From a virus, in the UHGV virus genome UHGV-0136738: a stretch of DNA of 13,932 nt; one strand, 5' to 3'. The position numbers and the translations under genes were made by a program. The notes under the pieces are model-generated. The model did not search any database. It was not told where the DNA came from and saw only the letters and a program-made list of their open reading frames with translations. Every line of letters begins with the position of its first letter. Positions within the stretch are counted from its first letter, which is position 1. Of this stretch, positions 350 to 13,932 are shown one piece after another.

Positions 350-2242
350 TTATGTCATACGGTAGTGCACCCAAGAAGATATAGCAACACCAACCGGAGT
401 TGGGCGTGTAACGTTTATATTGCTACCTGAAATATACGCTCTGTCAGCGCTAGCAGCGGAATCGTTGGCATACGCGGTGCATATATATGTCTCAGGACCC
501 TTATTAGATATAGTGACTGTCCCACTCCCTCCGCCGGATGCAATAGGAACCTCTATAATTCCGTCTGTATTAACACCGGTATTGCCGACGTAGGTATTCA
601 CCGCAGATTTAATAGCATCTGTTATTGACGTTAGCGTGTTATTACGTATAGTCAGATTGCCGCTAGATTGCAGGTAAAGCGCGGCCCCTAAGATACACCC
701 ACTAACTACACTCCCCGAGGTATTGCTGTAAAAAGCAATAGCGAAGGTATTAACGCCGCCACCAGTCGCTATAGTGCAATCCTTAATCGCCATCTTACCA
801 GCACCTGGCCCTATATTTATCCCGATGTTATTGTTGGTTGCATTTGAGTTCTCCGCGTTTATGTGGAGGCCTTGTAGCAGTTTATGCTGTTGCGCGGACG
901 ACATATTCGGGAACGTGACACCGAAGAATTGGTTAGTACCACTACCATCAGCGGCTATCCATGAGTTTACTAAGCTAAATCCACCATTTACGTTTTGAAC
1001 AACAACACCAGAATCCTGGCAATAATCCAGGTCCAAATTTGATAGATGGATATCGAGGCCGTCGTCGATGTACACCCCGTGTTGGAAGCGTATACACATC
1101 GTTTCGCCATTTACAATAATGGCTTCTGAGCGCACTGGGTTCGACCCATTCCACGTGTAGGTAGTTGGTTGAATACGAATGCCGAAACTATTAGAAACAG
1201 GGCCGCCGTCTCTACTAAAATGACAGCCACTAACCAATACACTGACACATTGGCCGAGTAAATGCAGCCCGATTCGACATGTACCCGCCTGACATGCTAT
1301 AAACTGGGAGTGCCACAAGCCTTGCATAAGATACGCCGTGTCTACCTCATTAACAGAAACGTGGTCAAACTTCCAACCGTACACTTGACGAATTACAGAG
1401 TCGGTAGAAGACAGATTAGTGTCAATACCGTTACATGAGTTATTGCCGGTGATTGATATGTCTTTTAAGTACCTGCCTATAGTATTTGAATCGTAGGCCA
1501 GGCGGAGTACCGCCCCCGTAAGAGTACTTTTTGCTCTAATTTGGGACCCTCTTCCATCCCCGCGGATATTAACTCCAGACGGAACCGTAACGGTGCTTCC
1601 GACATAGTAACCAACAGCATATTTACTAGCAGGTATGTAAACCTCCACACCATTAGGAAACGCCGCAGATACGGCATCGAAGCACGCCTGAAACGCGGCT
1701 GAGTTATCTGTGACCCCGTCGTCCACAACACCAAAATCAAGAACGCTTATGATGTCAGCGTTCTTTTCGTGCTGGCTTCTCGGTGACGAGTCGGTGATGT
1801 CCAGTTTAACCGCAACAAGGGCGTCCCCCATTAGTATGTCAGAGCTATCAGCCAAATTTTCCCGTAAATCCGGGTCAGTTTGCGGCTTCCAGTCGGCGCT
1901 GCCAACCGGATTAAAACTGGCAGGGACCACAACTGGCAGCGTACCAGCGTATGAGTACCACGTCTGGCTAACCGGGTCGTAAACCACTTTGTCGCGGTCA
2001 TTAACTGTCAACGTACCGCCGGTGGAAAAGTCCCATGACACCGGAGAAAAACCTGCGTCGCGTAACACCGCCGGAAGCGTCTTCTGTGTCTGGCCCGTAA
2101 CAGCGTTGGTCGCATAATCGATATCTGCACCGCCAGCGACGCCACCGGACTTACCAGTAATAACCTCGGCTTCAAAAATCTGGTGTTTCTTGGCGGTCTG
2201 TAAATCCGCCAGGCTTAAAACGTCACCACATCCGCTTGACAT
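350..2242 (-). CDS. tailspike / tail fibre protein with pectate-lyase-like right-handed beta-helix (putative polysaccharide depolymerase)
   Basis: 630-aa ORF with ATG at 2242 and SD AAGAGGA about 7 nt upstream. Residues about 165-190, ISVLDFGVVDDGVTDNSAAFQACFDAV, match the signature recalled for pectate-lyase-superfamily beta-helix tailspikes (DFGAxGDGxTDDTxAxQxA). The rest is rich in G/N/S/T-x-V/I repeats typical of beta-helix rungs. It is the last gene of the tail module. Confidence 0.8.
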   Translation of the reverse strand: MSSGCGDVLSLADLQTAKKHQIFEAEVITGKSGGVAGGADIDYATNAVTGQTQKTLPAVLRDAGFSPVSWDFSTGGTLTVNDRDKVVYDPVSQTWYSYAGTLPVVVPASFNPVGSADWKPQTDPDLRENLADSSDILMGDALVAVKLDITDSSPRSQHEKNADIISVLDFGVVDDGVTDNSAAFQACFDAVSAAFPNGVEVYIPASKYAVGYYVGSTVTVPSGVNIRGDGRGSQIRAKSTLTGAVLRLAYDSNTIGRYLKDISITGNNSCNGIDTNLSSTDSVIRQVYGWKFDHVSVNEVDTAYLMQGLWHSQFIACQAGTCRIGLHLLGQCVSVLVSGCHFSRDGGPVSNSFGIRIQPTTYTWNGSNPVRSEAIIVNGETMCIRFQHGVYIDDGLDIHLSNLDLDYCQDSGVVVQNVNGGFSLVNSWIAADGSGTNQFFGVTFPNMSSAQQHKLLQGLHINAENSNATNNNIGINIGPGAGKMAIKDCTIATGGGVNTFAIAFYSNTSGSVVSGCILGAALYLQSSGNLTIRNNTLTSITDAIKSAVNTYVGNTGVNTDGIIEVPIASGGGSGTVTISNKGPETYICTAYANDSAASADRAYISGSNINVTRPTPVGVAISSWVHYRMT

Positions 2243-2254
2243 ATAGAGTCCTCT

Positions 2255-4810
2255 TTAATAAAAACCGTTGCTGAATCCGTCGGAGAAACCGCGACCGAAA
2301 GGCGCGACGCCGTCGTATTTATAGAAACCTTCATCATAGTTGTAGCCCGTAATCTTAACCGTGCGGTCGTCGCCTGGGTCGATTGAAGAGACAACTATCC
2401 TCTGAGCATTATGCCTTGCTTCGTTGCCGAATGAAAACTCAGTTTTTAGTGCACTATTCCCGGTGTAAATGGCTTCCTCTGGTGCGGATAGCATAACCAC
2501 CTCGCGGTCGTGGCCTCCTTTGATAACAGAAATACTCTGTACCGAGCCGTCGCGCTTCTTGAGGATGATTGAGTGGTCGTCCCCTGGGGTGAACGTAACA
2601 GGCTGTGACAGAGTTAGCGTAAGCCCATTAACGGCAACAACATAACCATCCTGAGGCGCGATACGTGAACCTTTAACCACGCTGATTACACCACCCGGTG
2701 TAGCGAGTGCACCCTCTTCGGTAGCTTCGAACTCTACGACAACTTTACTTAACGCGTTGCGCTGGTAGCGACGCCACGCCAGCCAATATGCCTGCTGATA
2801 GTTACGTACGCCCTTCGATTCATATTCCTCGGTGTTTGCTCCGAGTTCTTCCGGGATATAAATCGTTTCCTGTACGTTAGTATCCGGGTCGATGTATGAG
2901 AACGACAGGCTATCATAGGTTGTCGAATCGTTGAACGTGCGCGTCCATTTCTCTGTACCAGTAGTTTTGCTGCGGTGAGTGAACACCATCTCAGGCCCTG
3001 CGACCGGGCGGTCGAAGCGCAGCATAATATCCGCACCTTTACGGTACGCAGTACAGAACACGGCTTCCGCTATGGTCTGAACGATGTCCTGCATGGTTGT
3101 GTCGTAATCGTCGAACGTGTAACAGAATTGCCCGGCTAACTCACTGCCGAAATAGGATTCAATCTCTTCCTGCACAGCGAGTAACTTGTCCATGTTTGCC
3201 GTCGTCAGTTGCAGATTGCCTACTGCGGGGTCGCGGGATAGTCTGATTAGCGACTGAACCGCCTGTGTATTAGGCGTCATTACTGTATCGAATACCCCAT
3301 TGCCGAGGTATTTGTAACACATCTCTGTCGCAATCATGCGTAGTTCCGGGTTGTCGATACTGGCGGCACGCGGCGTCTGTTTGCGGGCACAATGTACGGT
3401 AGTTCGGTTTCCGTAGTGCGGGGTGGTGTCCAGTGACTGACCGTACAGGTTGATGAATGTTATCTCGTCGCTTACCGTTCCGTCGTAGTCCTTATCGAAA
3501 TTCGTTATGCGGCGCATACGGGCGCGGAAACGGGACGCGGTCGGCAATTGCCCGTAAATAGATGTGCCAGCGTAATCGGTGCTATTGCCCGTAATTGTAG
3601 CCCGTACCGTGTAAATGTCGCTCAAAGGGTTGCGTTGAGAGTCAATCATCTGGTACTGGAGTTCTACGGTTACGCTGGTGCGGTTATATCCTCCGTCGTA
3701 TTTGTAGAGGCCGTTCTGCCCAGCTACGTTAACTAGCACACGGTCAACTTCTCCGCGTACCATGTAATACCAGTCGGTCAGGGATACATCATAGGTGTTG
3801 CTAGGGCCGATAAACGTATCTGAACGCTCTGTTAACGTGTACGTCTGCCCGCTAGTCAACGCCGCCCAGTTAGAAGCTCCGTTTACCGCTAATCTTACTT
3901 CGAAGTCGTCAACGTATAAAACCTCAAACGAGCCATTCAGGTTAGTGACATCAGCGACGTCAAAGTTGCTCAGCACCGCGACATCACCAACGCTAAGAAA
4001 TTCAGAAAAAGCAGAGTCACCTGACGGGTCATAGATGTAGCCGGTGTTTGAAATACGTTTAGCTGTACCGTCGGCGCTTGGGTTAGCTCCGATGTCGTTT
4101 GGCGCTTTCAGTACAATACCGTCAACGTCGTCGTTGGAGTATGTAACGTAGAGTTTCTGGTCAATGACGTCGCCGATTTGTAGTTGCGGTGAAGCGGTGT
4201 TGTTCGGAGAAGTATACGGCGCATACACGGCAACAGAGGAACCGGTGATGTCGCTTATCAGGGTGTCCCCCTCCGTGACACCATCAGCCTCGATATGCAG
4301 ATGCCCGCGACCAGCGTCATAGTATGAATACTCCAGCAAAGCACCAGTGGAGTTGAACGCTTTATACGTCTGCATCAGGTCGTTAGGGATTGTCTGCACA
4401 GTCCCGCAGATGTCGTAAGAGCGCTCGTACGGGCGAGGCTTGTTTGAGCGGTCTGTGAGGCTGTTATTCGGAGATGTTGTCTGGTTATTTGTTGCCGTGT
4501 AGTTGGCGTTAGCAGACATGTTAAGACCGAACAGTTTGGCGATAGGCTTGAGGATAAAGCCAAATACCTTACTAACCGCGCTAAGCGCGCCACTACCGGC
4601 GCCCTCAATAATATGGTAAACAGCTTCTTCATCTTTAAGTGCGTCGAAGTCGTCTGTTACGTCAGTATCATCGCCGATTTCACCGAGGTAGACGCGCACG
4701 GGCACACCGTCCGGGATACGGTTAACGACAAACTCCATCGGCATCCCGACGTGTTTTGTACGGTCGAAAGCGCCTTCAGCGTTTCGCGTGTAATGCAGGA
4801 TTATCGCCAA
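2255..4810 (-). CDS. large tail-tip / host-specificity protein (gpJ-like position), putative
   Basis: 851-aa ORF directly upstream of the tailspike and downstream of the NlpC/P60-like gene, the position held by the central fibre/host-specificity protein in lambda- and GTA-like tail modules. Start is ambiguous: TTG at 4810 with GGAG 8 nt upstream, or the first ATG at 4744. No catalytic motif recognised. Confidence 0.5.
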   Translation of the reverse strand: MAIILHYTRNAEGAFDRTKHVGMPMEFVVNRIPDGVPVRVYLGEIGDDTDVTDDFDALKDEEAVYHIIEGAGSGALSAVSKVFGFILKPIAKLFGLNMSANANYTATNNQTTSPNNSLTDRSNKPRPYERSYDICGTVQTIPNDLMQTYKAFNSTGALLEYSYYDAGRGHLHIEADGVTEGDTLISDITGSSVAVYAPYTSPNNTASPQLQIGDVIDQKLYVTYSNDDVDGIVLKAPNDIGANPSADGTAKRISNTGYIYDPSGDSAFSEFLSVGDVAVLSNFDVADVTNLNGSFEVLYVDDFEVRLAVNGASNWAALTSGQTYTLTERSDTFIGPSNTYDVSLTDWYYMVRGEVDRVLVNVAGQNGLYKYDGGYNRTSVTVELQYQMIDSQRNPLSDIYTVRATITGNSTDYAGTSIYGQLPTASRFRARMRRITNFDKDYDGTVSDEITFINLYGQSLDTTPHYGNRTTVHCARKQTPRAASIDNPELRMIATEMCYKYLGNGVFDTVMTPNTQAVQSLIRLSRDPAVGNLQLTTANMDKLLAVQEEIESYFGSELAGQFCYTFDDYDTTMQDIVQTIAEAVFCTAYRKGADIMLRFDRPVAGPEMVFTHRSKTTGTEKWTRTFNDSTTYDSLSFSYIDPDTNVQETIYIPEELGANTEEYESKGVRNYQQAYWLAWRRYQRNALSKVVVEFEATEEGALATPGGVISVVKGSRIAPQDGYVVAVNGLTLTLSQPVTFTPGDDHSIILKKRDGSVQSISVIKGGHDREVVMLSAPEEAIYTGNSALKTEFSFGNEARHNAQRIVVSSIDPGDDRTVKITGYNYDEGFYKYDGVAPFGRGFSDGFSNGFY

Positions 4811-7082: not shown

Positions 7083-9355
7083 TATTTGAACCCCGGCGCG
7101 TTTCTTGTGGCCTTGCGGGCCTTGCTAATCTTACTGTTACTGTTCTGCAAAGAGGCGGCGACCTGTTCCTCGATGATGATGCGCAGACGCCCTTCATCAT
7201 CCTGCTCGGTGGACACGTTGCCGATTTGCGAACTCGTGTTGTTTACGATGGTAACATTAGATGGGCCGGAAGAAGACCCGTTTTGGCCCATAATCTCTTT
7301 CATTTGTTGCGCGGTGCGTACTCGCGACGCCCCCGCGGGCATAATTACCTCAGGTTTACCGCGTTCGGCGATGGTGGAAGCCTGCCCCGCGGATAACTGG
7401 CCCCCCTGTTCACGCGCGGACCTGATAGCGGAAACCTGCGCCATACCGGCCCCAACAGCAGCGGCAGCGGCTACTGGTGCAAGGAATGGCCCAACAACCG
7501 GGATAGCAGCTGTTGACTTATACGCTTCAATAGCTGCAGTATACGTAGCGATAGTGGCCTGCACAATCGCGAACGCCTTATAAGCGCCGGATGCTTCACC
7601 TAACGCGGATCCAATGTTAGAAGCCATGTTACCAAAAGCTGTTGCCGTTGCGTCAGCACGCTTGGTTGCGTACTGCTCGTTGATGGCGCTAAGCGCAGCC
7701 TGATATTGCTTCTCGCTAATAAGACCTTGTTCTCGGTACTTATCGGCTACCGCCAGTTTCTGCTGTTCCTGAATATCCAGAAGCTCAAGCTCGGTGGCGT
7801 TCTGGCCCATAATCTGAGCCATGAAATCCTCACCTTTCTGTTGCTTATCCTGGGCTTCTTTCTGGCGTTTATCCAGTTCATCCTGCCGTTTTTGCCCTGC
7901 TTCAAGAACAATGGCGGTTTTAGCCTGTTCGTACTCTTTTAACGATAGCGCACCCTGACTGTAGAACTCTTTTGCTTTAGCCAGTTTCTGCTGCTCCTGG
8001 GCGTCAATAGCCTTTAACTCGTCATTGTTCTGACGGGCCAAAGTGTCGAGGTAATCTTGTGCCTGATTACGCAATTGTTCTGCTTTCTTAGCGGCTGCTT
8101 TTGCTGCTTTATCGTCGGTTTTCCCCGTCCCACCAGTCCCGCCTTTTTTATCAACAAGGCTGGCTAAGTCGATTTCTTGCTTCTTGCGCTCGTCATACTG
8201 CTTGCGCTGTTCCTCAATTTCTTTCTTACGCTGCTTAGACCTGTCGGTAATGGCCTGGGACTCCGCCTCTGCGCGTTTTATGCTGGCGGCATATGCGGCG
8301 TCGGCCTCCGCAGTCAGGTTTTTAAATGTGAGCGCTGCCGTTTTGCTCGGGTCAAACACGTCAGCAAGAGTCTGGCCTAACGCTACGGCATAATCATCAA
8401 TGCGCTGAAACCATGCAATAACCTCGTGGAATGTCTGCTGAATGTCAGGCAACCACTCACGGATAGCGTCAGGGATTGTGCCAAGCGAATCTGACATGTT
8501 CGCCGATTTGTCTTCTGTGTCGTACGCCAAATCATTCAAGGCGTCAGAAATAAACTTGAACGACTCATTGAACAGCGTCGCCCAATCCTGGAGTGTGGAT
8601 GCTATCTCATTAGACGCAATGGCATCGGTGAGCGCAGTTACTGCGTCTTCGGCCGCCGCGGCTTGCTCACCTACGGCGTCGCCAAAACCAGACTGCGCTA
8701 CCGCAAGAACAAGACCGTCAAATGAGTCAGCAAGGCTCGACAACTGCCCGTCAAGGGTCTTCGAGCGCGTCTCCATCGCTCCGGCGAAATCAGTATTGCC
8801 GATGTTTAGCAGGTATTTCTGAATCTCTTCGGAGTTCTTCTTGACCGTGGTCGTTACGCCACGGAACGTGAACGAAACTGTGTCCGCCTGTTGGGAAGAC
8901 TTGATGCCGAACTCTTTTAAGCGCTCGAATTCAAATGTACTGGCGTCAGCAACTGCCTCAATCATCTGGTTAAGGTCTTTACCCATCGCAGCCGCAGTGT
9001 TGCCGTAGGAGATTAACGCCTCTTTGCTGGGGTTAAGCCCGAGCGCCACGAGCTTGGTAAATCCCTCTACAGCCTGGTTAAGCCCGTATGGTGTTTCTTT
9101 AGCAAACTGTTGCAGGACGCTGAAAGCCTTTGCCGCGTTCTCGGCGCTTCCGGTCATTGTGATGAGTCCGGAGTTCAGCTTATCGAAGTTGCGCTGAGAG
9201 TCCACCAGCGCGCTGAACACCTGTTTAGCGGTTTCCAGACTGACAACGGCAGCTGCCGCCGCCCCCGCCGCCTTGGTAAGCCCGTTCAGTTGAGATGTTG
9301 TTTTATCGACGCCGGTCGAAGATACTCGTACTATCAAACTAGCGGTATCAGCCAT
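7082..9355 (-). CDS. tail tape measure protein
   Basis: Long ORF, 757 aa from ATG at 9355 (AAGGT SD about 8 nt upstream; the ORF track extends to TTG at 9370). Ala-rich N-terminus, a long charged coiled-coil centre with two internal repeats (residues about 449-484 and 526-560), a hydrophobic Ala/Gly/Val-rich segment near residues 595-650, and location directly after two chaperone ORFs. Confidence 0.85.
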   Translation of the reverse strand: MADTASLIVRVSSTGVDKTTSQLNGLTKAAGAAAAAVVSLETAKQVFSALVDSQRNFDKLNSGLITMTGSAENAAKAFSVLQQFAKETPYGLNQAVEGFTKLVALGLNPSKEALISYGNTAAAMGKDLNQMIEAVADASTFEFERLKEFGIKSSQQADTVSFTFRGVTTTVKKNSEEIQKYLLNIGNTDFAGAMETRSKTLDGQLSSLADSFDGLVLAVAQSGFGDAVGEQAAAAEDAVTALTDAIASNEIASTLQDWATLFNESFKFISDALNDLAYDTEDKSANMSDSLGTIPDAIREWLPDIQQTFHEVIAWFQRIDDYAVALGQTLADVFDPSKTAALTFKNLTAEADAAYAASIKRAEAESQAITDRSKQRKKEIEEQRKQYDERKKQEIDLASLVDKKGGTGGTGKTDDKAAKAAAKKAEQLRNQAQDYLDTLARQNNDELKAIDAQEQQKLAKAKEFYSQGALSLKEYEQAKTAIVLEAGQKRQDELDKRQKEAQDKQQKGEDFMAQIMGQNATELELLDIQEQQKLAVADKYREQGLISEKQYQAALSAINEQYATKRADATATAFGNMASNIGSALGEASGAYKAFAIVQATIATYTAAIEAYKSTAAIPVVGPFLAPVAAAAAVGAGMAQVSAIRSAREQGGQLSAGQASTIAERGKPEVIMPAGASRVRTAQQMKEIMGQNGSSSGPSNVTIVNNTSSQIGNVSTEQDDEGRLRIIIEEQVAASLQNSNSKISKARKATRNAPGFK
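7691..8026 (-). repeat. internal duplication within the tape measure gene
   Basis: Peptides ELKAIDAQEQQKLAKAKEFYSQGALSLKEYEQAK and ELELLDIQEQQKLAVADKYREQGLISEKQYQAAL lie 76 codons apart. Their DNA cores gccagtttctgctgctcctg (7980..7999) and gccagtttctgctgttcctg (7752..7771) are 19/20 identical. Confidence 0.6.
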
Positions 9356-9680
9356 GATTTCTACCTTCAAAGATTGCTTCTAGGCCCATGATAATGTCTA
9401 TCTCAAACAGGCTAAGCTGTTTCTGTGTGACGTCGAGATAGGCTTTCAGGTCTTGCCACGTTACGGATTCTCTTGCAAACAATACTACCGCGTCATCGCG
9501 CACGTGTCGCGTAAACTTAATGTCGCAATACGTTTCAAAGGTGGATATGAAAAGGGGCGGGCATTCTGGCCCACCCCGTCGCGCTGCACGTTTTTTCTTA
9601 TCGATTACACCCATTGCGATAAGCGCCTGTTCGTGACCGTCGGCTATAGAATCAAATTCTCTGATTTTATGCTTATCCAC
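9348..9680 (-). CDS. tail assembly chaperone, T-like distal ORF (possibly made as a G-T fusion by -1 frameshift)
   Basis: 110-aa ORF from GTG at 9680 with no convincing SD. The same frame is open upstream to 9731 and overlaps the end of the 139-aa ORF in the -1 frame. Its TGA at 9350..9348 lies just inside the TMP start (ATGGCTGA). Confidence 0.5.
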   Translation of the reverse strand: MDKHKIREFDSIADGHEQALIAMGVIDKKKRAARRGGPECPPLFISTFETYCDIKFTRHVRDDAVVLFARESVTWQDLKAYLDVTQKQLSLFEIDIIMGLEAIFEGRNHG

Positions 9681-9712
9681 GAACTCATAGGTGGCGAACC
9701 TGTACAGCGCGT

Positions 9713-10132
9713 CTACTTTTCCTGCAATGCTTTACGCTCAGCATTATGGAACGCTGCCACCTGAGTACCAAGCCCCTTGAACTGGTCTAGAAGCTTATTA
9801 AACGCCTCTTTGGAGAACGGTTCATCATCAAAGCTCCAGCCGTTGACGACTTCCGCAGCGAGTTGGCGGTTCAGGTCTTCTGCCAGTTCATTAATCGCCA
9901 GGTTATATTCAGTATAGTCGCCGGATTCTTTGGCGGCTTTTTCGAGTTCTTCAAAACGTGCAAGCCCGCGACGGTACGCAATAATGAAAGCGCGACCCGC
10001 TTTAACGGCGACATCGGCATCAGGGCTTACTACGTTAAGCCACTCCCCCGAGTCTTCACCGTTCGGCAGGAGAATCGGCATCTTCTTGCCTACCATCGCT
10101 TTCTCTTCAAAATAAAAATCAGAAAGTTTCAT
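9713..10132 (-). CDS. tail assembly chaperone (G-like)
   Basis: 139-aa acidic ORF immediately upstream of the T-like ORF and the tape measure gene. ATG at 10132 has SD AAAGGA about 8 nt upstream. Confidence 0.6.
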   Translation of the reverse strand: MKLSDFYFEEKAMVGKKMPILLPNGEDSGEWLNVVSPDADVAVKAGRAFIIAYRRGLARFEELEKAAKESGDYTEYNLAINELAEDLNRQLAAEVVNGWSFDDEPFSKEAFNKLLDQFKGLGTQVAAFHNAERKALQEK

Positions 10133-10239
10133 TCTTTAATCCTTTGGTTAAGAGGTTACTGGTTAAAGGAAATGCGCCAGACGGGAACCACCCGCTTTTC
10201 GTGTGCGACACTAGGCGCAAAATTATTCTAACACACTAC

Positions 10240-10268
10240 TTGCACACCCCAATATAATAGCGTACTAT
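10240..10268 (+). promoter_or_regulatory. candidate sigma70-like promoter for the plus-strand cassette
   Basis: TTGCAC (10240..10245), 17-bp spacer, TACTAT (10263..10268), about 30 nt upstream of ATG 10300. A perfect TATAAT at 10253..10258 overlaps but lacks a properly spaced -35. Weak matches only. Confidence 0.2.
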
Positions 10269-10299
10269 TCACTTACACCAACAATGAAGGGGTTTTAAA

Positions 10300-10491
10300 A
10301 TGTCCAGTTTACCAATTTCCTTAATCCTGTTTGCACTGCTCGCGTACTTTGCGCCTTTTTTAGTCGCCTATTTCCGTAACCATAAAGCAAAGCTGGCGAT
10401 ATTTATGGCTAACTTATTTCTCGGGTGGGTTCTGTTGCCGTGGGTATTCATTTTAATCTGGGCTTGCAACTCGAACGTGAAAGAGAAGTAG
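10300..10491 (+). CDS. small membrane protein resembling the superinfection-immunity (Imm_superinfect) family
   Basis: 63-aa ORF with SD GAAGGGG 7 nt upstream of ATG. Two predicted transmembrane helices. Sequence YFAPFLVAYFRNHKAKLAIFMANLFLGWVLLPWVFILIWAC fits the pattern recalled for that family (YF-P, A-x-R-x-H, IF-x-NL-x-LGW, W, LIWA). Confidence 0.5.
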   Translation: MSSLPISLILFALLAYFAPFLVAYFRNHKAKLAIFMANLFLGWVLLPWVFILIWACNSNVKEK

Positions 10492-10529
10492 GCTACTATA
10501 AGACAAATCCTAAACACGAGGAAGTAAGC

Positions 10530-11270
10530 ATGGCCCAGAAGAAAATAACCGACGAGCAGTTACAGGAAGAATTGAACGCCGGGGTGAAGAACGTAGATAT
10601 CGCCCGTAAATACGGCATCTCAGACCGCGTTATCCGAATCCGTAAAGCGAAGCTGGCTAAGAAAGGCGTAGGCCACGGGCGTGACGTAAGCCACCTTGTA
10701 CCAGACGGCTACAAGATTAAGGGTACGTCGTCTCTGGTGGACGAGTTCGGTAACACTAAGTTGCAGTGGGTTAAGACAGACACCGATGCCGAACGTCAGG
10801 TTGAGTTGATGAAAGCCGTAGTCGAAGGCATGAAGTCGGAGATTACTCCCGTTCCGCCAGTTAAGGCCGCCCGGGCTAAACGTGACGACAAGCTGCTTAA
10901 CCTGTACACCGTGTCTGATTTCCATCTCGGTATGTTAGCCTGGGCTGACGAGAGCGGCGACGACTGGGATATGAAAATCGCGGAGGACTTATTTTCACGA
11001 TGGTTTGATGCCGCGTTTCAGAAAGCACCGGATGCAGGTACGGGGGTTATTAATCTTCTTGGCGACTTAGCGCACTTCGATAGTCTTGATGCCGTTACAC
11101 CAGCAAGCGGTCATGTCCTTGACGCCGACACGCGTTACCAGAAACTTGTTCGCTATATGATTCGCATGGTACGCCGTGTTGTCGATATGGCACTGGTTAA
11201 ACATAAAACTGTTCGCTTGCTTATCGTGCAAGGGAACCACGACGAATCCGGGATGATTTGGCTGGCGTAG
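10530..11270 (+). CDS. HTH domain fused to N-terminal half of a calcineurin-like (SbcD/Mre11-type) metallophosphoesterase, ending at an in-frame TAG
   Basis: ATG at 10530 with strong SD GAGGAAG 5 nt upstream; the ORF-track GTG at 10425 overlaps the preceding gene. Residues about 17-42 (GVKNVDIARKYGISDRVIRIRKAKLA) look like a helix-turn-helix. Phosphoesterase motifs I (VSDFHLG), II (GDLAHFD) and III (GNHDE) follow. TAG at 11268..11270. Confidence 0.7.
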   Translation: MAQKKITDEQLQEELNAGVKNVDIARKYGISDRVIRIRKAKLAKKGVGHGRDVSHLVPDGYKIKGTSSLVDEFGNTKLQWVKTDTDAERQVELMKAVVEGMKSEITPVPPVKAARAKRDDKLLNLYTVSDFHLGMLAWADESGDDWDMKIAEDLFSRWFDAAFQKAPDAGTGVINLLGDLAHFDSLDAVTPASGHVLDADTRYQKLVRYMIRMVRRVVDMALVKHKTVRLLIVQGNHDESGMIWLA

Positions 11271-11660
11271 ATGTTCAGCACACTGTACGACAACGAGCCT
11301 CGTGTGTTCGTCGATACGTCGCCGGATGTGTATAAGATGGTGCAACACGGCAAAACGACGCTGTTCTTTCATCACGGGCATAAGGCACGCTTCGACGCAA
11401 TCGAGCCTGTTATGATTGCCAAGTTCCGCAAAGCGTTCGGCGAGAGCGTCTACAGCTACGCGCATGTAGGCCACCTCCACCACCAGAAGATTGTCGAAAG
11501 CCGTAACATGATTGTCGAACAACACCGCACCTTAGCCGCTAAAGACGCATACGCCTCCCGTGGCGGATGGATGTCAGGCCGCGGGGCAAATGTAATTACT
11601 TATAGCGCAGAATATGGCGAGGTCGCACGTTTAACTATTTCACCGGAGATGCTGGGATGA
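11271..11660 (+). CDS. C-terminal half of the same metallophosphoesterase (motifs IV-VI), same frame as the upstream ORF
   Basis: ATG at 11271 directly follows the TAG and is in the same frame (11271 minus 10425 is divisible by 3). Contains FFHHGH and AHVGHLHH, matching the downstream His and GHxH motifs of the fold. Ends with ATGA overlap into the next ORF. Confidence 0.65.
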   Translation: MFSTLYDNEPRVFVDTSPDVYKMVQHGKTTLFFHHGHKARFDAIEPVMIAKFRKAFGESVYSYAHVGHLHHQKIVESRNMIVEQHRTLAAKDAYASRGGWMSGRGANVITYSAEYGEVARLTISPEMLG

Positions 11661-11887
11661 CTTCAAAATACGACAGAACTATGACAAATATACACGGCAG
11701 CACGATGACTGTTGATGTCTATGATGTCCTCCGCGCTTTCGACATCCGAGACCCGGCGCTGCAGCACGCATTGAAAAAGTTGCTGTGTATGGGTCTACGC
11801 GGGCACAAAGACACAGGCACGGACTTAGAAGAGGCAATAGAAAGTCTGGAGAAGTTACGAGAGTACCGGAGTAATATTGATGAGTGA
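11657..11887 (+). CDS. hypothetical protein (76 aa)
   Basis: ORF whose start overlaps the upstream stop as ATGA, consistent with translational coupling inside the cassette. No motif recognised. Confidence 0.45.
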   Translation: MTSKYDRTMTNIHGSTMTVDVYDVLRAFDIRDPALQHALKKLLCMGLRGHKDTGTDLEEAIESLEKLREYRSNIDE

Positions 11888-11894
11888 AAGTATT

Positions 11895-12056
11895 ATGAAA
11901 ACAATATATGTAATCAGAATATACGATGAAGAATGGGATGAGTGGGTAGACATTTACGCCGTTGGAAGTAAGGAAGAGGCGTCAAAAGAAATGACAGAAA
12001 GAAGTGACCGAGGCCAGTTAACTAACTTCTATGAAATGCCATTCAAAAGTGAATAA
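11895..12056 (+). CDS. hypothetical small protein (53 aa), AT-rich
   Basis: ATG 11895 to TAA 12054..12056, translation MKTIYVIRIYDEEWDEWVDIYAVGSKEEASKEMTERSDRGQLTNFYEMPFKSE. Uses A/T-rich codons (ata, aga, aaa) unlike neighbouring genes and has a weak SD. Ends 4 nt before the terminator hairpin. Confidence 0.3.
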   Translation: MKTIYVIRIYDEEWDEWVDIYAVGSKEEASKEMTERSDRGQLTNFYEMPFKSE

Positions 12057-12060
12057 GAAA

Positions 12061-12080
12061 AAGGCCCCTTTCGGGGCCTT
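12061..12080. terminator. Rho-independent terminator hairpin, probably bidirectional
   Basis: Perfect 8-bp stem aaggcccc / ggggcctt with loop tttc, followed by agttttatg on the plus strand and preceded by gaaaaa (a T-run for the minus strand). Lies between the plus-strand cassette and the minus-strand major tail gene ending at 12085. Confidence 0.65.
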
Positions 12081-12084
12081 AGTT

Positions 12085-13269
12085 TTATGCGTAGGTGATA
12101 CGCTGAATAACGATAGACGACTGATATTGGTTGCCCGTAGCCTGGCCTTCAATAGACTGAGTGATAGACTCTGGGCCGCCAATCTCTGGTGTAACTGCGG
12201 TCAACTCCGCACGTTTCAAACTGAAAGACATAGCCCCGTTTACCCCCGCCAGAATAGAGTTAATCTCTACCTGTTGCTCGTTGATAAACTTCTGAATCAT
12301 AGCCATGTCGTACAGTTTGCCCGCGATGGAAAAGGTGTTAGCCGCACGGCCTCGTTCAACGAACGCTACGTTACTGTTGCCGAGTTCGAACTGGGCGGAA
12401 GCACCGTTATCGTTGGTGATGGTCAGCGTGTCGCAACGCAACGGCGACGTACCATCGAACACTGACACATCTACAGATGAGAACGGCTCATCGGTAAACG
12501 TCACCTGAGAGAAATCAGAGCCAGCCGGAGGTGCAGTAAGAATCTCCTGGCTCAGGCCGATGAACGGGAAGCTGCCGGTTACCATCGCGTTAACCGCCTG
12601 CTCGATAGTGAAGCCGGAAATCTCAACTCCTTTGGTAAGCATGTACGCGTCAGGGTTTCCGCACTGGCCTTTGAACCAGGTCAGGATAGAGAACGTTTTA
12701 CACGCGTTACCGGTTTCCAGCTTGTCGCCGGTTTCCAGCTTGTCGCCGGTTTTAGCGTCAGTCGTTACAGTTTCTGTGGTAAGCGTGTGCTGAATACCTG
12801 CGCCTGTTACGACAAGAGCGGAAACTTCGGTAACGATGAATGGCTTCGCGTTATCGCCTGTCAGACCGGTGAACGCGATAAGGTCGCCAACTTCAACGCC
12901 GTCGGTAATGAAGCTACCGGTTGCGCGGGTGAACGTTTTACCAACCGGCGCAACCGTAATTTCCGCGCCAGTAATCTCGACGCCAGCCTGCCACGTAGAT
13001 GTCATCGCACCTGCGAGGAAATCATCCTGACTTTTTGAGCTAAGCTCGATGGCGTATTCCCCGGTTACCTGTTTGTTACCTGTGCGGATAGACGTGGTTT
13101 CACGGCTGCCGTCCAGTTCGTTTGACGTCAGTGCGTCACGTGTTACCGCGGGAACACCGCCAGTATTGCGCAACGGCGACCATACCGGGGAAGTCGGTGT
13201 TACGCCCGGGGTAGTTTCCGCCACATAGAATTGCGCGGTATTCGCGCCCTTAAAAGGAGTTGTAGCCAT
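12085..13269 (-). CDS. major tail (tube) protein, putative
   Basis: About 394 aa from ATG at 13269 (SD AGAGG 8 nt upstream; the ORF track starts at GTG 13275). Ser/Thr/Gly/Val-rich beta-type composition. Lies after a tail-terminator-like gene, is followed by a terminator, and precedes the chaperone/TMP genes. Confidence 0.5.
   Translation of the reverse strand: MATTPFKGANTAQFYVAETTPGVTPTSPVWSPLRNTGGVPAVTRDALTSNELDGSRETTSIRTGNKQVTGEYAIELSSKSQDDFLAGAMTSTWQAGVEITGAEITVAPVGKTFTRATGSFITDGVEVGDLIAFTGLTGDNAKPFIVTEVSALVVTGAGIQHTLTTETVTTDAKTGDKLETGDKLETGNACKTFSILTWFKGQCGNPDAYMLTKGVEISGFTIEQAVNAMVTGSFPFIGLSQEILTAPPAGSDFSQVTFTDEPFSSVDVSVFDGTSPLRCDTLTITNDNGASAQFELGNSNVAFVERGRAANTFSIAGKLYDMAMIQKFINEQQVEINSILAGVNGAMSFSLKRAELTAVTPEIGGPESITQSIEGQATGNQYQSSIVIQRITYA
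12710..12753 (-). repeat. perfect 18-bp tandem duplication inside the major tail gene
   Basis: Plus-strand unit ggtttccagcttgtcgcc occurs twice in tandem (12712..12729 and 12730..12747), followed by a partial third copy ggtttt. It encodes the in-frame peptide repeat TGDKLETGDKLETG. Confidence 0.9.
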
Positions 13270-13271
13270 AT

Positions 13272-13688
13272 TCACAGCCTCTTGGTGAATGCAATAAAGT
13301 TAATCGACAATGGTCTTTTGGCCCATCCATTTTCTACAATCAGCGGCCCCAGGCTAACCGATTGCACTTCGGCGCAGATGTCGTTACGTGAAAATGACTT
13401 ACCTGCTTTGAATGCCGTGTTAAGTAAGTCTGCCATTTTATTGATTGGCGCGCTACCTTTCACCGATGCGTAGTTAATGTCTACCTGATAAACACCGGCG
13501 CGTTGCTCGGTGAAGAATAAGTCGGCCTGCTCTGTATCCGCCAGCAGCATGTAGCTAGCCAGATACGGCGTATCAGTTGACGTTGGGGCGTCGATATTTT
13601 CAAGCGCAACTTTGATGCCGTTGGTGTTTCCGAAGGCTACCAGCGGCACGTCAAACGCTTTTGTTAAATCCTCAAAGTAGCCCATCAT
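13272..13688 (-). CDS. tail terminator / tail completion protein-like, putative
   Basis: 138-aa ORF with SD AAGGTG just upstream of tandem ATG codons; its stop lies 2 nt before the major tail gene ATG. Size and position match a tail terminator; no motif recognised. Confidence 0.4.
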   Translation of the reverse strand: MMGYFEDLTKAFDVPLVAFGNTNGIKVALENIDAPTSTDTPYLASYMLLADTEQADLFFTEQRAGVYQVDINYASVKGSAPINKMADLLNTAFKAGKSFSRNDICAEVQSVSLGPLIVENGWAKRPLSINFIAFTKRL

Positions 13689-13689
13689 T

Positions 13690-13932
13690 TCACCTTGTTG
13701 GCTTCTTCATTAATAAGTTGCTGGAAGCGTGACACGTTAGTTCTGACCATACCTTGTGGGGCCTGTTGCGACCAACCATATTCCAGTCGTTGCGCGTACG
13801 GCAGGTTATTAGTTAGCGTGAACTCGTGCCAGTCCGCAGTTTTCAGCACGAAACTAGTGGCGTTTCCGGTTGCGGTGTTGCCGGGCTTGTCTGTAGCATC
13901 TGTAGTTCCGGTGGCGGGAGTTCCGCCAGATG
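13690..13932 (-). CDS. 3' end of an upstream structural gene (partial, start outside window)
   Basis: The only minus-strand frame free of stops from 13932 down to TGA at 13692..13690 (C-terminus ...VWSELTCHASSNLLMKKPTR). The stop overlaps the SD of the next gene (TGAAATG), consistent with operon packing. Confidence 0.4.

Follow-up and report, generated by a model that had tools for sequence, protein, structure and literature searches.

The phosphoesterase locus and its reading frame

The window analyzed here is a single stretch of 13,932 nucleotides (UHGV virus genome UHGV-0136738; ENA ERZ1749178 contig NODE_1538_length_13932_cov_2.907833, with a k-mer coverage of 2.9x) that originates from an uncultured Kagunavirus (Guernseyvirinae, the E. 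coli siphophage group) and is, along most of the stretch, approximately 86-90% identical at the DNA level to previously described E. coli phages. On its plus strand, two open reading frames follow one another within one frame; the first extends from ATG 10530 through 246 sense codons to a TAG at 11268-11270, and the second from ATG 11271 through 128 further sense codons to a TGA at 11658-11660 (the two starts are 741 nt, or 3 x 247, apart). A preliminary description of this DNA, made from the letters alone, had reported that only the TAG lies between the two frames, and this was confirmed from the sequence and its translation. A longer frame could be opened from a GTG at 10425; the homologues and the Shine-Dalgarno sequence GAGGAAG at 10518-10524 (plus strand), with a predicted anti-Shine-Dalgarno pairing of -6.5 kcal/mol that is typical for genes of the window, support ATG 10530 as the probable true start.

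The first 246 codons (10530-11267, plus strand) encode an N-terminal helix-turn-helix (HTH) at approximately residues 8-44 with weak similarity to the GerE/FixJ type, a beta-hairpin linker domain, and the first half of a calcineurin-like metallophosphoesterase domain, as assigned from the translation, the AlphaFold2 (AF2) secondary structure, and weak HTH matches. Codon 247 is the amber stop, and codons 248-376 with the terminal TGA (11271-11660, plus strand) encode the second metallophosphoesterase half, which starts at the internal Met248 according to the translation and the family alignment. The five ordered motifs of the domain (DxH, GD(x)nD, GNH[D/E], H, and GHxH) are all present in the window and are split between the two frames: motif I (D130-x-H132, 10917-10925), motif II (G178-D179...D184, 11061-11081), and motif III (G235-N236-H237-D238, 11232-11243) precede the stop, and motif IV (H282-G283-H284, 11373-11381) and motif V (G314-H315-x-H317-H318, 11469-11483) follow it on the same strand. 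In a family alignment of 64 sequences with approximately 40-98% identity, residues D130, H132, G178, D179, H182, D184, G235, N236, H237, and D238 are invariant, as are those of motifs IV and V. The earlier domain call, with motifs I-III before the stop, the His and GHxH motifs behind it, and neither half carrying a complete active site, was correct in both the domain and the placement of its motifs. Enzymes of the metallophosphoesterase superfamily draw the ligands for both of their metal ions from motifs that lie on the two sides of such a break; therefore, neither fragment is expected to be active alone.

When the stop is read through, the resulting protein aligns with PHROG 704 over its full length (residues 3-375 against profile positions 1-389 of 390, E=3.6e-166). 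Because this match spans the stop, the two frames represent one interrupted gene and not a chance juxtaposition. PHROG 704, which carries the putative annotation label 'DNA repair exonuclease' (Golestan ATS93245.1 and K1H YP_009168851.1; Kagunavirus/Jerseyvirus), is the same gene with the same five motifs. It also lies at the same genome position, where the tail-assembly-chaperone and tail-tube genes flank a plus-strand cassette that includes an Imm gene. All members described so far consist of one 376-aa chain, whereas the window copy is cut by TAG at codon 247. Relatives are encoded by approximately 1977 of 50,697 phage records at E<=1e-5.

Compared with the calcineurin-like superfamily (PF00149/PF12850; Rv0805, Mre11, GpdQ, PolD DP1, YfcE), the window protein shares the five motifs in canonical order, has marginal sequence similarity, and carries the HTH and beta-hairpin module as an N-terminal addition. 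With the read-through protein, the Pfam scores stayed below the gathering thresholds (21.7 vs. 27 bits for PF12850 and 18.8 vs. 21.5 for PF00149), and either fragment alone gave no phosphoesterase match in Pfam; a precomputed PF12850 match exists for one 97%-identical relative (P0089). For a full-length relative with 98% identity, the AF2 model (pLDDT 77.6) predicts the two-sheet beta-sandwich fold, and Foldseek returned 93 PDB matches at E<=0.001, led by Rv0805, Mre11, and GpdQ. The predicted fold resembles Rv0805, archaeal Mre11, GpdQ, PolD DP1, YfcE, and Vps29 at E-values of 2e-8 to 1e-5 with 11-17% identity. A sequence search of the PDB with the single sequence and with the family profile gave no match at E<0.1, PADLOC gave no match, NCBIfam returned only a sub-threshold HTH match, and a literature search for Kagunavirus together with phosphoesterase found nothing. 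An assignment as the repair nuclease Mre11/SbcD, and with it the usual exonuclease label, is not established, given no significant sequence relation, a fold similarity equal to that with non-nuclease phosphoesterases, and no SbcC/Rad50 neighbor. An accessory role in nucleic-acid end-processing or phosphodiester hydrolysis is tentatively proposed for this protein.

The gene belongs to a plus-strand cassette embedded between minus-strand tail genes, with Imm, small ORFs, or a HAD-PNKP as its neighbors. Upstream lies a gene for a superinfection-immunity protein (Imm; 10300-10491, plus strand; PF14373, phrog_1039 E=1.5e-22), and downstream, at 11657-12056 on the same strand, gene calling placed two small genes, one of 76 aa (11657-11887; phrog_2452 E=3.9e-36) and one of 58 aa (11880-12056). 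The TGA of the phosphoesterase gene overlaps the ATG of the 76-aa gene (ATGA, 11657-11660), such that the downstream genes are translationally coupled to the phosphoesterase gene and a premature stop may be polar on them. The match of the 76-aa product to phrog_2452 is confined to the C-terminal third of that family. The downstream part of the cassette differs from relative to relative: the 76-aa and 58-aa ORFs occur in the window, JSSK01, and ZCEC5, a HAD-type polynucleotide kinase/phosphatase (162 aa) and a 184-aa ORF in Golestan and the relative L233, and the 76-aa ORF and a pRha/ANT antirepressor-like protein in the relative L234.

Origin of the amber codon

The homologous region was extracted from 79 loci covering the site, comprising four GenBank phages and 75 IMG/VR contigs. 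In all 79, the gene is one uninterrupted ORF of approximately 376 aa that was recovered as one tblastn segment with no internal stop; a conserved split gene was consequently rejected. At the position of the TAG, 55 loci have GAG, 15 have GAA, nine have another sense codon, and none has a stop. The nine loci with other codons (CAG, GCN, AAR, or CAC) are the most distant ones, and across the family residue 247 varies between E, Q, A, K, and H. The protein databases agree with the nucleotide comparison; the best 120 of 3583 homologues are 376 aa long, or 406/411 aa where the start was called further upstream, and a second search from a 42%-identical relative yielded thousands more proteins, of which the best 120 listed have 368-412 aa and none is split. 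In the GenBank phages Golestan, XY2, ZCEC5, and GZMU_E2010, the gene is a single CDS of 1131 nt, and in JSSK01 it has 1203 nt owing to an earlier start. The possibility raised in the preliminary description that homologues might consistently be two genes with this boundary was thus contradicted, as none of the 79 loci is split there, and the check it proposed, whether they are single proteins of approximately 376 aa, gave a positive answer.

The closest relative is Golestan, with 95% nucleotide identity in the gene and, if Glu is placed at the stop, 99% amino acid identity; the top-ranking database proteins (P0001 and P0002) come from contigs that are 92-95% identical in the gene and are no nearer than Golestan. 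A comparison of TGGCTGGCGGAGATGTTC in Golestan with TGGCTGGCGTAGATGTTC in the window places the TAG one G>T step from GAG, and the flanking letters are the same on both sides (TGGCTGGCG-GAG-ATGTTC in Golestan and TGGCTGGCG-TAG-ATGTTC in the window), leaving one G>T transversion. Base 11268 is T in the window and G in 42 of 42 close homologues, and the alignment to relatives gives GAG (Glu247) as the ancestral codon. The stop is therefore one base from the sense codon of the relatives, and both the frame and the conservation continue downstream of it. The ATG that follows the stop is the ancestral codon of Met248, which is nearly invariant across the family, and for this reason ATG 11271 is not a start that was acquired for a second chain.

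Four causes had been offered for the interruption in the preliminary description, with no choice made among them: a nonsense mutation, a suppressor-dependent or readthrough gene, a two-chain enzyme made by termination and reinitiation, and a sequencing error. The second and third of these would leave the TAG allele functionally expressed, through an amber-suppressing host, efficient readthrough, or a restart at UAG-AUG that gives an active enzyme of two chains. Several properties of the site are compatible with such expression. The stop and the start are directly adjacent, and an adjacent stop and start favors restart of the ribosome, which is the classic behavior of nonsense-restart sites in bacteria. 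Suppression is reported to be efficient where UAG is followed by A, residue 247 is variable enough that an inserted amino acid would probably be tolerated, and the downstream half of the gene is fully intact. Against this stands the comparison with the relatives, none of which has a stop at codon 247, any other in-frame stop in the gene (0 of 79), or a split at the boundary. Additionally, the restart codon is the ancestral Met248, and the predicted anti-Shine-Dalgarno pairing before it is weak (-3.3 kcal/mol, compared with -5 to -7.4 for most genes of the window). The break is predicted to fall between the fold halves and away from any domain boundary, with residue 247 inside a helix at 239-252 directly past the GNHD strand in the AlphaFold model described above. 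An evolved two-chain enzyme via TAGATG was rejected on these grounds, and programmed readthrough on the count of relatives.

The decoding environment also argues against expression through the stop. TAG terminates both the minus-strand gene at 9713-10132 and the Imm gene, in agreement with the earlier remark that TAG serves as a true stop elsewhere in the window, so that suppression would lengthen those two proteins, and no other gene of the window is interrupted. A search with ARAGORN found no tRNA in the window and none in the complete 44.8-kb genome of Golestan, providing no suppressor in either. The sample also appears to be a gut metagenome and not a laboratory supE or supF host. Reassignment of the stop codon and a suppressor-dependent gene were rejected from these observations. 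Overall, functional expression of the TAG allele is considered very improbable; some residual function through restart or near-cognate readthrough may exist, with no sign of an evolved mode. An Rfam search of 10530-11660 detected no RNA element at the stop. The minus-strand ORFs at 11067-11525, 10620-10925, and 11153-11353 had no PHROG match, and an antisense gene accounting for the region was rejected accordingly.

Support for the base and constraint on the gene

The exact 246-aa and 129-aa products also occur on a Logan contig, SRR1761716_17214, whose sequence is identical to positions 9760-13922 of the window, and the protein cluster table places both exact fragments on these two contigs only. 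Logan drops k-mers that are seen only once (PMC12424806). Since the TAG is kept in this assembly, the T at 11268 was read at least two times, and two different assemblers both kept it; a random read error is therefore very unlikely. A single sequencing run appears to lie behind both TAG-carrying assemblies, so that their agreement supports the base only indirectly. The runs SRR1761703 and SRR1761761 represent human fecal samples from Peru of the Obregon-Tito 2015 study (PMC10635906), and by its accession range SRR1761716 probably belongs to the same study, whose libraries were Illumina Nextera shotgun libraries (BioProject PRJNA268964; PMC4386023). A literature search for SRR1761716 itself gave no result.

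An alternative to a mutation in the phage is that the TAG is an artifact of the library, the sequencing, or the assembly, with GAG in the phage DNA and a damaged or mis-copied template dominating the few reads at 11268. The k-mer coverage of 2.9x and the apparent single run behind both assemblies, one being an exact substring of the other, leave room for such a template, and G>T is the typical signature of oxidized guanine. The altered base is invariant among the 42 close homologues in a gene under strong purifying selection, and split database copies can be artifacts, as in the GenBank phage M01 discussed below. However, the retention of the T by Logan requires at least two reads, and as two assemblers chose it, the T was no minority path. 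It is very improbable that two random errors arose independently at one site (approximately 1e-7 per site by our own estimate), and the probable source study used enzymatic Nextera libraries and not acoustic shearing (PMC4386023, given that the run belongs to that study). The rest of the gene and window likewise has no excess of private or disruptive changes. Only six nucleotides of the gene are private to the window in comparison with the 42 close homologues, a number within the range of other genomes. Besides the T at 11268, they comprise three synonymous changes at third positions and a pair in codon 352 that replaces Ser by Gly. The remaining complete genes of the window are all intact and of their usual lengths. 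Taken together, an artifact is considered unlikely, and we infer that the T is genuinely present in the phage DNA.

The age of the change was approached through dN/dS, calculated from Nei-Gojobori counts between the window and its relatives for codons 1-246 and 248-376 separately. The ratio is 0.01-0.03 on both sides of the stop. Relative to Golestan, the counts of synonymous and non-synonymous differences are 25 and 2 before the stop, and 24.5 and 1.5 after it (dN/dS 0.014 for the latter part). Selection is not relaxed downstream; therefore, the stop must have arisen very recently if it is real at all. Within the gene, dS relative to Golestan rises from 0.17 in codons 1-246 to 0.37 in codons 248-376. 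Mosaicism at the level of domains was also observed, in that two IMG/VR contigs (L061 and L064) share the first approximately 100 residues (HTH and linker) almost exactly with the window, and their phosphoesterase domain is far more diverged, with 56-61% identity overall.

Further copies of the amber allele were sought in two collections. The IUPAC pattern TGGYTNGCNTAGATGTTY gave 26 matches in IMG/VR, with none in homologues of the phosphoesterase gene, and an exact 29-mer gave no matches against the GTDB genomes. The occurrence of the allele nowhere else in these scans counts against its reading as a nonsense allele, as does the strong purifying selection on the gene across the family, which argues that a null allele would be costly in nature.

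Nature of the allele and other disrupted copies

Considering the homologues, the decoding environment, and the support for the base, the locus probably carries a recent amber loss-of-function allele of a known phage gene whose product is normally a single chain. Among the causes listed at the outset, the nonsense mutation is thus the one that stands, readthrough or suppression and the two-chain enzyme are dropped given the absence of stops in relatives, the lack of a tRNA, the genuine use of TAG, the ancestral ATG in GAG-ATG without a proper Shine-Dalgarno sequence, and the single-chain homologues, and a sequencing or assembly error retains a lower weight. In the proposed sequence of events, a single G>T transversion at 11268 would recently have turned Glu247 (GAG) into an amber stop in a wild Kagunavirus. 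Ribosomes would stop at UAG247 and release a fragment of 246 residues that keeps the HTH and motifs I-III, and without motifs IV-V this fragment would form no two-metal active site. At most a few ribosomes would read through by near-cognate decoding or restart at AUG248, and their products would be incidental. The allele would then be a null or a strong hypomorph for phosphoesterase activity, which the phage may tolerate because the gene appears to be accessory and dispensable. This would be an ordinary mutation of the knock-out type and neither a new kind of feature nor a new way to make the enzyme. The classical amber mutants of T4 and lambda (am) likewise have one base change to UAG in an otherwise intact gene, where an AUG after the stop could allow low-level restart; in contrast to them, the window allele comes from a gut metagenome assembly and was not selected in the laboratory on a suppressor host.

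Disrupted copies of this gene exist elsewhere but are rare, and some are clearly artifacts. A +1 frameshift allele (P0243) is found on 19 contigs of up to 40.9 kb and falls in the same 90% cluster as the N-terminal fragment of the window. Its tail KKCPLAYRAREPRRKRNDLVS corresponds to the normal gene read in the shifted frame past the A-run in CATAAAAATG, with the frameshift located at the A-run after VKHK (approximately codon 227), about 20 codons upstream of the amber codon. This product ends at a TGA inside GCTGAG, and its length of 246 aa equals that of the window fragment by coincidence. In GenBank OR061069.1 (Escherichia phage M01; L084 880-2013), three single-base insertions lie within 27 nt of the homologous gene, owing to which it is annotated as two CDSs, a 'hypothetical protein' and a 'transcriptional regulator'; this split copy is probably a sequencing error, in a record that is labeled a partial genome and has 104 features on 45 kb. 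The phage CR01 (OR061068.1, the accession adjacent to M01) matches the N-terminal fragment query in three separate pieces. PHROGs also contains separate families for N-terminal and C-terminal fragments (phrog_20703 and phrog_20762).

The independence of the amber codon 247 from the +1 frameshift on 19 contigs is the basis for a different reading, according to which loss of the phosphoesterase half is selected and not accidental, with wild Kagunaviruses repeatedly shedding catalysis and keeping the HTH fragment, or, as a variant, using an enzyme split at UAG-AUG. Such selection could reflect, for example, escape from a host defense that senses or depends on the enzyme. This reading is regarded as very improbable. 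The interruption itself carries little biological weight, being one more premature stop in an accessory phage gene on a low-coverage metagenome contig. Its value is mainly for annotation, in that the 246-aa and 129-aa ORFs should be treated as one disrupted gene and not as two proteins; such fragments have already seeded spurious database families, namely the two PHROG fragment families above. If the allele is real, it also lends weak support to the view that Guernseyvirinae phages can propagate without their widespread HTH-metallophosphoesterase.

Several other features of the window were noted in the course of the analysis. A match to the int-alpA RNA motif RF02996 lies on the minus strand at 10157-10221 (Rfam score of 36.6 vs. 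a gathering threshold of 35.8 bits), within the intergenic region between divergent genes that precedes the tail-assembly-chaperone gene; the motif is also found in Golestan (L002 1290-1354) and L234 (1368-1432) and is not found in JSSK01, XY2, or ZCEC5. In the tail-assembly-chaperone pair (9348-10132, minus strand), the downstream frame runs open from 9731 in the -1 register of the upstream gene and overlaps the last six codons of the latter (AGCATTGCAGGAAAAGTAG), which fits the usual G/GT programmed frameshift with no canonical XXXYYYZ heptamer. The tailspike gene (350-2242, minus strand) encodes a pectate-lyase type protein (PF12708, PF21519) where K1-specific relatives carry an endosialidase instead, and several relatives (e.g., NRG857CP3, Bas74) resemble it only from about 1850-2055 onward; the difference in the tailspike suggests a different host receptor specificity. 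The gene for an 851-aa tail protein (2255-4810, minus strand) appears to start with TTG and overlaps the end of the upstream gene.
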